Origin: Escherichia coli
Lineage (GTDB): Bacteria; Pseudomonadota; Gammaproteobacteria; Enterobacterales; Enterobacteriaceae
Strand: one strand, 5' to 3'
Assembly (NCBI RefSeq): GCF_044647545.1
Contig: NZ_CP172818.1
Length of the DNA stretch: 64,000 nt
Under the pieces are notes generated by a model that searched no databases, was not told where the DNA came from, and saw only the letters and a program-made list of their open reading frames with translations. Both the position numbers and the translations under genes were made by a program. Below are positions 42,889-49,082 of the stretch, piece after piece (positions within the stretch are counted from its first letter, which is position 1; the number at the start of each line of letters is the position of its first letter).

Positions 42889-43074
42889 ATTTCTCTGAGA
42901 TGTTCGCAAGCGGGCCAGTCCCCTGAGCCGATATTTCATACCACAAGAATGTGGCGCTCCGCGGTTGGTGAGCATGCTCGGTCCGTCCGAGAAGCCTTAA
43001 AACTGCGACGACACATTCACCTTGAACCAAGGGTTCAAGGGTTACAGCCTGCGGCGGCATCTCGGAGATTCCCT
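42889..43074 (+). ncRNA. ssrS: 6S RNA
   Basis: Sequence ATTTCTCTGAGATGTTCGCAAGCGGGCCAGTCCCC...GGCATCTCGGAGATTCCC recognised as E. coli 6S RNA; ends are approximate. Confidence 0.9.
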
Positions 43075-43720: not shown

Positions 43721-43749
43721 TTGACATCGTTGATTCTTTAACCTAATTT
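43721..43749 (+). promoter_or_regulatory. sigma-70 promoter of sibC (TTGACA-17 bp-TAATTT)
   Basis: Perfect -35 hexamer at 43721-43726 and -10-like hexamer at 43744-43749. Confidence 0.55.
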
Positions 43750-43756
43750 AGTGAGT

Positions 43757-43897
43757 AAGGGTAAGGGAGGATGACTCCTCCCCTGAGACTGACTGTTAAT
43801 AAGCTGGGAAACTTATGAGTAACAGTACAATCAGTATGATGACAAGTCGCATCATAACCCTTCTCCTTCAAGCCCTCGCTTCGGTGAGGGCTTTACC
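43757..43897 (+). ncRNA. sibC: SibC antitoxin sRNA of a type I toxin-antitoxin
   Basis: Antisense to the ibsC ORF; internal hairpins GGGAGG...CCTCCC and GCCCTCGCTTCGGTGAGGGC; boundaries inferred from the promoter and terminal hairpin. Confidence 0.6.
43796..43855 (-). CDS. ibsC: type I toxin IbsC (19-aa hydrophobic peptide)
   Basis: Minus-strand ORF ATGATGCGACTTGTCATCATACTG... translating to MMRLVIILIVLLLISFPAY, the Ibs-family signature. Confidence 0.75.
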   Translation of the reverse strand: MMRLVIILIVLLLISFPAY

Positions 43898-46287: not shown

Positions 46288-46518
46288 TCAGACCCCGTTG
46301 GCAAGCCGCGTGGTTAACTCATCCATAAAATATCGCGCAATGGCGGGCATCCCCTTTCGCCCGGCAAATAAAGCATACAACGGTCTGGGTATGCCGCTCC
46401 ACGGTGCAAACAGGCGCACCAGTTCACCGTTCGCAAGCCCCTGTTTACAGGCAAATTGAGGCAATAACGCCACGCCATTCAACCCAACCGGGACGCGAAC
46501 TCGCCGAGCAAAATGCAT
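46288..46518 (-). pseudogene. yqfE: LysR-family regulator remnant (C-terminal fragment only)
   Basis: 76-codon frame resembling the C-terminal co-inducer domain of a LysR regulator; no N-terminal HTH region upstream. Confidence 0.6.
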
Positions 46519-46584
46519 TAGCGCAAATCCCTGATCTTATTACACAAGTATTTAATCATTATCTTTAATATAAAAGGAGTTATT

Positions 46585-46845
46585 ATGTCTATTAAGCAAA
46601 ATTTATTTGCCGCATTATTTCTTTGCACTCTCACAGGACACGCATTTGCCGCAACCGAGATACACAAACCGGACAATAATCTTGAACAGTTATCAAAAGT
46701 GAGCATGTCCACACACAATAGCAATCCAGCGGGCGTTGAAAGCCAAATCAAAAGAGAAAGCGGAAGAGTTACAAGCCAGCAATTACTACATCAGTTCTTT
46801 CTCCGTAAAAATTATATCCACGCCACTGTAATTTTCTATAAATAG
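46585..46845 (+). CDS. hypothetical small secreted protein (86 aa, predicted signal peptide)
   Basis: ATG preceded by strong RBS AAAAGGAG; N-terminal hydrophobic stretch ending in AFA; AT-rich; no recognised homolog. Confidence 0.4.
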   Translation: MSIKQNLFAALFLCTLTGHAFAATEIHKPDNNLEQLSKVSMSTHNSNPAGVESQIKRESGRVTSQQLLHQFFLRKNYIHATVIFYK

Positions 46846-47528
46846 CCCCTCTGTTTAACGGAAGCATGGAATTATTCCATGCTCCTCTGCCAAAATGAAA
46901 TAAAAAATGAAAAAAGCTAATCTTACAGGTACGTTGGTTTGCTTTGTCGCATGCCTTATTTTTTTGTCGTCCGGTGATATTTTTCGTGAAAAGCCAATCG
47001 CTCTAATATGGTTCCTTCGACAAAACATACTCTTTTTTACGGGAACTCTTGCGTGGTGTCTGATGACGCTGACGATGTGTTTATCGTTGCGTTCATCATG
47101 GCTTAACAAAGTGCTGGGCGGTCTGGATAAAGTATGGCGAATCACATAAGTGGGCAGGAATATGCGCCATAGCGTTTGCTTTCGCCCACTGGCTGGATGA
47201 AAAATTACCCCAGTTATTCGTCGCCTTTGGCTGGCTTACTCACCCTGGTAAAATCGTTGATATTAACCTGACGCCAGTACAAGAAAATTGGCTTCATGCG
47301 GGACTGTTAGCGGGTGAATGCGCAATGTTTATTATTATAGCGATGGTTTGCGTATCTCTTAGCAAAAGAGTTCCCTATCATTTATTTCATCTTGTTCACC
47401 GTTTGTTCCCCGTCTTTTATCTGGCAATTGCCTTTCATGTGTTTACTGCTTTGTTTAAATCATACTGGTGGAACTCCTGCTGCGTATTTATTAATTTTAA
47501 TTACTATTCCGGGCGTCTTTGCGGCTTT

Positions 47529-47537
47529 CATTTCGCT
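47529..47537. repeat. IS1 target-site duplication, left copy (CATTTCGCT)
   Basis: Identical 9-mer directly flanks both IS1 ends. Confidence 0.8.
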
Positions 47538-47552
47538 GGTAATGACTCCAAC

Positions 47553-47942
47553 TTACTGATAGTGTTTTATGTTCAGATAATGCCCGATGACTTTGTCATG
47601 CAGCTCCACCGATTTTGAGAACGACAGTGACTTCCGTCCCAGCCTTGCCAGATGTTGTCTCAGATTCAGGTTATGTCGCTCAATGCGCTGAGTGTAACGC
47701 TTGCTGATTACGTGCAGCTTTCCCTTCAGGCGGGATTCATACAGCGGCCAGCCATCCGTCATCCATACCACGACCTCAAAGGCCGACAGCAGGCTCAGAA
47801 GACGCTCCAGTGTGGCCAGAGTGCGTTCACCGAAGACGTGCCACAACCGTCCTCCGTATCCTGTCATACGCGTAAAACAGCCAGCGCTGACGTGATTTAG
47901 CACCGACGTAGCCCCACTGTTCGTCCATTTCAGCGCAGACAA
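47553..47942 (-). CDS. insB: IS1 InsB-like transposase C-terminal ORF
   Basis: 129 aa ending ...[54 protein letters not shown]; overlaps the insA-like ORF in a different frame. Confidence 0.7.
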
Positions 47943-48252
47943 TCACATCACTGCCCGGCTGTATGCGCGAGGTTACCGACTGCGGCCTGAGTTTTTTAAT
48001 AAAGTGACGTAAAATCGTGTTGAGGCCAACGCCCATAATGCGGGCGGTCGCCCGGCATCCAACACCATTCATGGCCATATCAATGATTTTCTGGTGTGTA
48101 CCGGGTTGAGAAGCGGTGTAAGTGAACTGCAGTTGCCATGTTTTACGGCAGTGAGAGCAGAGATAGCGCTGATGTCCGGCAGTACTTTTACCGTTACGCA
48201 CCACGCCTTCAGTAGCTGAGCAGGAGGGACAACTGATGGAGATGGAAGCCAC
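47827..48252 (-). CDS. insA: IS1 InsA-like ORF, continuing in frame into the N-terminal part of InsB (141 aa)
   Basis: Starts [40 protein letters not shown] (InsA zinc-finger/HTH) and runs past the usual A6C slippery region. Confidence 0.7.
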
Positions 48253-48307
48253 GGGAGCACCTCAAAAACACCATCATACACTAAATCAGTAAGTTGGCAC
48301 CATTACC

Positions 48308-48316
48308 CATTTCGCT
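48308..48316. repeat. IS1 target-site duplication, right copy (CATTTCGCT)
   Basis: Identical 9-mer directly flanks both IS1 ends. Confidence 0.8.
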
Positions 48317-49082
48317 GCTGAAATTCAAACGGTAGTAAAAACAAGCATCAGGCTACCATTAAAAACATTGTTAACCATCCAGGACAAATTACCGAAGTCA
48401 CCCTGGAACTGGAACATGCCATCGACTATTCTCCGGGGCAGTTTGCATTCTTAACGTTCGCACACAGTAAAGAATCTCACCCTTTTACTATCGCTTCATA
48501 CACCAAAGAGAAGAACACGTTGCGCTTTGCCATCAAAAATTTAGGGGATTATACCTCTACCCTTGCATCCTCGATAAAAATCGGCCAGTCCGCCTTCGTT
48601 GAAGGGCCATGGGGAAAGTTTGATTTAGACTCTCCCTTGCTCCCACCAGGTCTGGATAGCAGGAGGCATCGGCATTACCCCCTTTATCGCCCAGCTTGAG
48701 TATCGTAAACATCATGGCGCGTCCTCTGTTCCTGTGGATCTCTGGTATTACGTCAGCCGAAGCGAGGATGCCTGGTATGTTGATAAACTGACCTCACTTT
48801 GTGCCCAGGCCAGGGTCACACTGCATCTGCTTGATGCGCATAAAGGTGAGCGCCTACAGGCGCACTATCTTACTGATAAAATAGCAAATAAAGGTGACAC
48901 CCATTTCTGGTTTTGCGGCCCACAGAGTTTTGCCAAAGCGCTCAGCAAAGGGTTATATGAAAATGGGATTGCCAGCCAAAACTTCCATTACGACCGTTTT
49001 TGTATGCGTTAAATGCTCTGTACCCAACGCAAAATTGTGTCATAGTGCAGGAAAAAGCATTTACCAGGAGCAGACAACAGCA

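Follow-up and report, generated by a model that had tools for sequence, protein, structure and literature searches.

An IS1 copy disrupted by two private indels within a patch of small private changes in an Escherichia coli genome

We analysed an IS1 insertion sequence in a 64,000-nucleotide stretch of an Escherichia coli genome (contig NZ_CP172818.1 of assembly GCF_044647545.1; the whole stretch is called the window below). The element interrupts a gene for a ferric-reductase-like/FAD-binding oxidoreductase, which is part of a small island flanked by rpiA and argP. Uninterrupted alleles of this gene are present in other genomes and are annotated there as one "ferredoxin reductase family protein" gene. 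A search of the 64-kb window with the IS1 terminal-repeat pattern returned exactly two matches, 47538-47560 (+) and 48285-48307 (-), where 0 were expected by chance. The stretch from 47553 to 48252, which had been singled out by a sequence-only reading of this DNA, is the coding span of the IS1 copy and not the whole element. The features of the locus are as follows.

47538-48307, minus strand: IS1 element of 770 bp (canonical length, 768 bp)
48285-48307, minus strand: IRL, the insA-proximal end, GGTAATGGTGCCAACTTACTGAT, identical to the orthologous copy
47538-47560, plus strand: IRR, GGTAATGACTCCAACTTACTGAT, identical to the orthologous copy
47529-47537: left copy of the target-site duplication CATTTCGCT, read from the window sequence, with the same flanks in FUJ80154
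48308-48316: right copy of the target-site duplication CATTTCGCT, read from the window sequence and from the comparison with FUJ80154
47827-48252, minus strand: 141-aa ORF with a GTG start, made up of the full InsA zinc ribbon and HTH, an in-frame fusion to the first ~50 InsB' residues, three out-of-frame codons and a stop
47553-47942, minus strand: second ORF, which lies in frame +1 with respect to the 141-aa ORF and carries the remaining InsB sequence (HVFGERT...NIKHYQ)
47991-47997, minus strand: A6C slippery motif AAAAAAC, intact and now read in the insB phase without a slip

The assignment to the IS1 family is supported by several features. The element is bounded by terminal inverted repeats of the ~23 bp expected for the family, and the 9-bp direct repeat CATTTCGCT on both flanks has the typical size of an IS1 target duplication. 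The protein families PF03811, PF12759 and PF03400 all gave strong matches, so that the InsA zinc ribbon, the HTH and the DDE domain are each represented; NCBIfam NF033558 also matches and gives the same domain picture. The A6C motif of canonical IS1 is present, and the promoter-bearing left end is intact, as are both inverted repeats. The layout of a canonical autonomous IS1 (768 bp, a 91-aa InsA, insB in the -1 frame and a 232-aa InsAB') was not found in the window copy.

The sequence-only reading had proposed that the InsA frame continues for 141 codons into InsB and that a different frame holds the rest of InsB. Translation and Pfam analysis bear out both statements. The 141-aa ORF passes through TTATTAAAAAACTC into InsB sequence and terminates with ...TVVARLR*. 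It matches Zn_ribbon_InsA at residues 1-36, HTH_Tnp_IS1 at residues 43-84 and positions 1-37 of the 131-position DDE_Tnp_IS1 profile. The second ORF, which is genuine InsB sequence only downstream of about 47838, matches positions 31-131 of the same profile. The DDE domain is therefore divided over two frames at profile position ~37. In the canonical 232-aa protein, we take the catalytic residues to be D109 (AEMDEQW), D166 (WMTDGW) and E191 (RIERH), from a reading of the conserved motifs; the DDE residues of IS1 were reportedly described by Ohta et al. in 2002. Under this assignment, the second ORF encodes the presumed D166 and E191.

We compared the window copy to IS1 elements at the same site in other strains. 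With the element and its flanks as the query, an IS1 was found at the identical chromosomal position in 35 complete E. coli genomes, including ECONIH1. ECONIH1 and the 34 other genomes share the insertion site, the orientation and the flanks, and the inverted repeats are identical. Direct inspection of FUJ80154 showed the same 9-bp target duplication as in the window. The orthologous IS1 of ECONIH1 is 768 bp long and is annotated by PGAP as "IS1 family transposase, programmed frameshift" (WP_223216367.1). Its translation gives a 91-aa InsA and, after a -1 slip at A6C, a 232-aa InsAB'. These products agree with the annotation of K-12 IS1A and with the published description of canonical IS1 (PMC12428005). 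Mosaic elements were also noted. In FUJ80154 (NZ_AP024687.1; locus L009, 2548-3315), the IS1 at this site, with the same target duplication, is IS1A-like at IS positions of about 357-678 and of the resident type at both ends, a pattern suggestive of gene conversion among IS1 copies. The IS1 of 2021CK-00607 is probably a mosaic as well, judging from its matching identity and annotation.

The window copy and the ECONIH1 ortholog match at 765 of 766 aligned bases (99.87% ungapped identity). Alignment to a 768-bp copy from strain 4/4 (annotated "programmed frameshift") and to a 769-bp copy from E138 also showed three differences only. The differences from the ECONIH1 ortholog are an insertion before A6C, a deletion in insB and one synonymous change.

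47998-48003, minus strand: private 4-bp insertion, CACTT[TATT]AAAAAAC, directly 5' of A6C, with an exact placement that is ambiguous within 6 bases
about 47839-47842, minus strand: private 2-bp GC deletion, GTGGCGCAC to GTGGCAC, in a GCGC context ~160 bp downstream of the 4-bp insertion
48049, minus strand: single substitution, GCA to GCG (Ala, synonymous), from the alignment

Because the +4 and -2 changes net to +2, the element measures 770 bp between its inverted repeats instead of 768 bp, which accounts for the 2-bp excess that had been noticed from the sequence. Because of the same two changes, the window copy has neither the 91-aa InsA nor the 232-aa InsAB'. The same-site ortholog is canonical and only these three differences separate it from the window copy. 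We therefore conclude that the window copy derives from a canonical element inherited at this site.

The two indels have distinct effects on the reading frames. The 4-bp insertion counts as +1 in frame terms and brings insA and insB into phase. The frame outcome is that of the canonical -1 slip by the ribosome on A6C, except that one residue is added (HFIKK vs HLKK). Placed directly 5' of an intact A6C, it would thus act as the engineered and natural A7C fusions do. The 2-bp deletion then shifts the frame again and is followed by three aberrant codons and a stop at 47827-47829, so that translation would be expected to end after 141 codons. The description in the sequence-only reading was incomplete on this point; two separate lesions are involved, the insertion joining insA to insB in frame and the deletion disrupting insB.

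We considered which products the element could still encode. The sole sizeable product would contain the zinc ribbon, the HTH and the first Asp of the presumed triad. Since the second Asp and the Glu are missing from the 141-aa protein, the copy is predicted to be unable to make a transposase without further recoding. Nor can the copy produce the canonical 91-aa InsA, whose C-terminal tail (NSGRSR*) has moved to the +1 frame. We also considered whether a -1 slip on the remaining A-run might restore InsA; a check by hand showed that it would not, the tail being in the +1 and not the -1 frame. The RNA fold downstream of A6C gave z = +0.82 relative to shuffled sequences, and this region is unchanged from canonical copies. 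The zinc ribbon and HTH of IS1 have been assigned to inverted-repeat binding (PMC12428005). Judging from its domains, the 141-aa protein would most likely be InsA-like, repressing the IS1 promoter and competing for binding to the ends. Action of InsAB' in trans has been reported (PMC12903888). The two inverted repeats of the window copy do not differ from those in the canonical ortholog, and the element should for this reason still be mobilisable by transposase from other IS1 copies.

The frames also allow a more elaborate reading, in which the two indels are real and together exchange the recoding switch of IS1. The +4 change would remove the need for a -1 slip, and a +1 slip at CUU-CGG-UGA (47827-47835, minus strand) would give a near-full-length transposase (...TVVARL-GERT...). 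With a rare Arg codon and then a stop codon next in line, the peptidyl-tRNA-Leu would shift from CUU to UUC, and translation would enter the InsB frame exactly. The site is reminiscent of CUU-AGG-C in yeast Ty1 and of CUU-UGA in prfB. The support for this reading is a coincidence of sequence. The absence of daughter copies argues against an active element of this kind, and we consider a switch of this sort extremely improbable.

We next compared the window copy to the IS1 types of K-12. IS1A, IS1D and IS1F share the family, ends, A6C motif and gene order of the window copy, with ungapped identities of 93.1%, 92.7% and 95.4%, respectively. All three are 768 bp long and have no indel at either of the affected sites. 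The sequence-only reading had named alignment to these types as its check, and the alignment places +4 at the slippery site and -2 downstream, with A6C intact. The closest K-12 type, IS1F of MG1655 (locus L007, 1973-2740), is itself another naturally defective IS1, its insB7 being annotated as a pseudogene. In strain BW25113, four of the six IS1 elements were found to be essentially immobile (PMC12428005).

Fusions of insA and insB are known from both engineered and natural copies. An engineered fusion of the two frames (GA2GA3C, "IS1E.fs") raises transposition ~1000-fold (PMC12428005). Natural A7C copies encode a single in-frame 232-aa ORF transposase; the exact context occurs in 15 complete-genome records, and the copy in E138 is labelled "IS1X4 family". 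Longer A-runs, A8C and A9C, are present in two assemblies (SCU-308 and SCU-176) and are annotated as frameshifted. Some of these A-run length variants may be homopolymer sequencing errors. The window copy resembles the frame-fused elements in that insA and insB are in phase and no slip is needed, and it differs from them by its one extra residue. The frame-fused copies encode a full-length transposase, with hyperactivity measured for IS1E.fs, whereas the frame of the window copy ends at codon 141.

We searched for the layout of the window copy in several sequence collections. Megablast with the whole element as query identified ~75,000 IS1 places in 5,426 complete E. coli genomes; the best matches were 99.1-99.2% identical over 768 or 769 bp, and none was identical. 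A 75-nt query over the slippery site had a best full-length match of 96% among ~70,000 IS1 places in the 5,426 E. coli genomes, and the +4 change was absent. A 221-nt query spanning both indels had a best match of 97.3% among the 5,000 best-scoring plasmid records, with neither indel present. Exact 24-27-nt junction patterns for both indels gave 0 matches in representative genomes of ~100,000 species and 0 matches in JGI metagenome contigs, and the +4 junction gave 0 matches in viral contigs. The exact ORF products of the window copy were not found in a gene-position index; exact look-ups of the 141-aa, 129-aa and 104-aa products and of the altered DUF1471 protein gave no record. If the layout defined a distinct isoform, independent copies elsewhere, at different sites or in different genomes, would share its changes; no such recurrence was found in the collections searched. 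Of the two options that the sequence-only reading had offered, a variant isoform or a defective copy, only the second is upheld: relative to the canonical ortholog, two indels break the frames. We consider it highly probable that the window copy is a common 768-bp E. coli IS1 of a non-IS1A type, that its site is common by descent to 35 genomes, and that its layout was destroyed by two private indels.

The two IS1 indels belong to a larger group of changes. We compared the whole window to ECONIH1 and delimited the following patch.

46750-48628: 11-12 small changes private to the window, indels of 1-4 bp for the most part, over the IS1 and flanks of ~790 bp and ~320 bp

The clustering of these changes is pronounced (binomial P = 8e-14). 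Eight of the events are indels, some of them complex, such as ATTA to AATCA at 47140 and TTTTAC to TTTAGAC at 48627. The changes break the frames of the flanking ferric-reductase and oxidoreductase genes, with the ferric-reductase-like gene truncated at 47149, and a compensating +1/-1 pair lies inside a DUF1471 gene (46750 and 46805). Because the same kind of small indel affects the non-IS flanks, the lesions in the IS1 are not IS1-specific. No other complete E. coli genome has the flank changes, not even in alleles that lack the IS, and the best match is 99.3%. Since these changes too are private, we discarded recombinational import of a diverged allele as an origin of the patch. Gene conversion by another IS1 does appear to have occurred at this site in FUJ80154, but it was discarded as an origin of the indels because no donor carrying them was found.

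Outside 46481-48628, the window and ECONIH1 differ by two substitutions and five indel events in ~62 kb, plus a 1346-bp deletion. Four of the five events are small (1-7 bp; three intergenic and one in scpA), and the fifth is a missing 101-bp intergenic segment. The change in scpA (methylmalonyl-CoA mutase) is a contraction of C6 to C5 at 50348, close to the 5' end of the gene, and would put it out of frame. The 101-bp segment, at 33007-33011 just downstream of bglA, is present in ECONIH1 and other top-scoring genomes and carries a palindromic REP-like sequence. At 46480/46481, the window lacks 1346 bp that ECONIH1 and its relatives possess, comprising the 5' portion of a gene for a LysR-family regulator together with the greater part of a gene for an FMN-dependent NADH-azoreductase; this junction is 270 bp to the left of the first change in the patch. 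Rfam also identifies 6S RNA (ssrS) at 42889-43072 and a SIB antitoxin RNA at 43721-43871. Judged by the annotation of ECONIH1, the latter is adjacent to the type I toxin gene ibsC.

The patch, which the sequence-only reading had left out and which reaches into the flanking genes, makes a sequencing or assembly error a serious alternative to decay. The strain would then carry a canonical 768-bp IS1, and the indels would be base-calling or consensus errors over a repeat, for instance where a gap was closed with an amplicon or where long reads were left unpolished. This explanation overlaps with the one we favour, since the element is a canonical IS1 in both; what separates the two is solely whether the strain itself has the lesions. 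The distribution of the changes speaks for an artefact: the window is nearly identical to ECONIH1-like genomes outside the patch, yet the private events are packed into 2.1 kb around the IS1, and the IS1 with its short unique flanks is as long as an amplicon bridging a gap caused by a repeat would be. Natural divergence is expected to consist mostly of substitutions, and eight indels, several of them complex, are unusual for it. That the flank changes recur in no other E. coli genome fits an artefact as well. Other observations favour real decay. Four of the five indels elsewhere in the window are intergenic, which resembles real variation filtered by selection and not the output of a generally error-prone assembly. 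A 4-bp insertion outside a homopolymer is atypical as a platform error. Finally, the patch lies wholly in genes already inactivated by the IS1 and the adjacent 1346-bp deletion, where real decay would be tolerated. We regard an artefact and real decay as about evenly balanced; the patch would result from poor assembly quality in this stretch in the one case and from mutagenesis localised beside the deletion in the other.

Two further accounts treat the fused frames as biologically meaningful. The window copy could be a genuine IS1 isoform, functional and propagating, with insA and insB fused by design or with another recoding or two-protein arrangement. The intact A6C, inverted repeats and promoter-bearing end are consistent with this, and natural in-frame A7C copies such as those of E138 and the 15 records are annotated as single-ORF transposases. 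A functional isoform is hard to reconcile, however, with a canonical ortholog at the same site, with a second indel that splits the DDE domain, with zero other occurrences of the layout in the E. coli, plasmid, species-representative, metagenome and viral collections searched, and with similar small indels in the non-IS flanks; we consider it very improbable. Alternatively, a hyperactive +4 fusion could have arisen first and then been silenced by a -2 suppressor frameshift that was selected or tolerated. Frame fusion is known to raise transposition by three orders of magnitude (PMC12428005), hyperactivity of this kind is likely costly, and a second, inactivating lesion in the same copy would then be plausible. 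Both lesions do lie in one copy with a single other base difference. A hyperactive copy should have left some daughters with +4 alone, yet none was found in the E. coli, plasmid, species-representative or metagenome collections. The unrelated indels around the element allow a simpler, non-selective account. We therefore view such a two-step history as unlikely, though less so than a functional isoform.

These results support annotating the locus as an IS1 with a frameshifted (pseudogene) transposase and not as a new isoform. Degenerate IS copies are commonplace; the window copy adds no new type to the IS1 family and carries little biological weight. The patch around it serves as a quality flag, and this stretch of the source assembly should be treated as suspect before its pseudogenes are interpreted.
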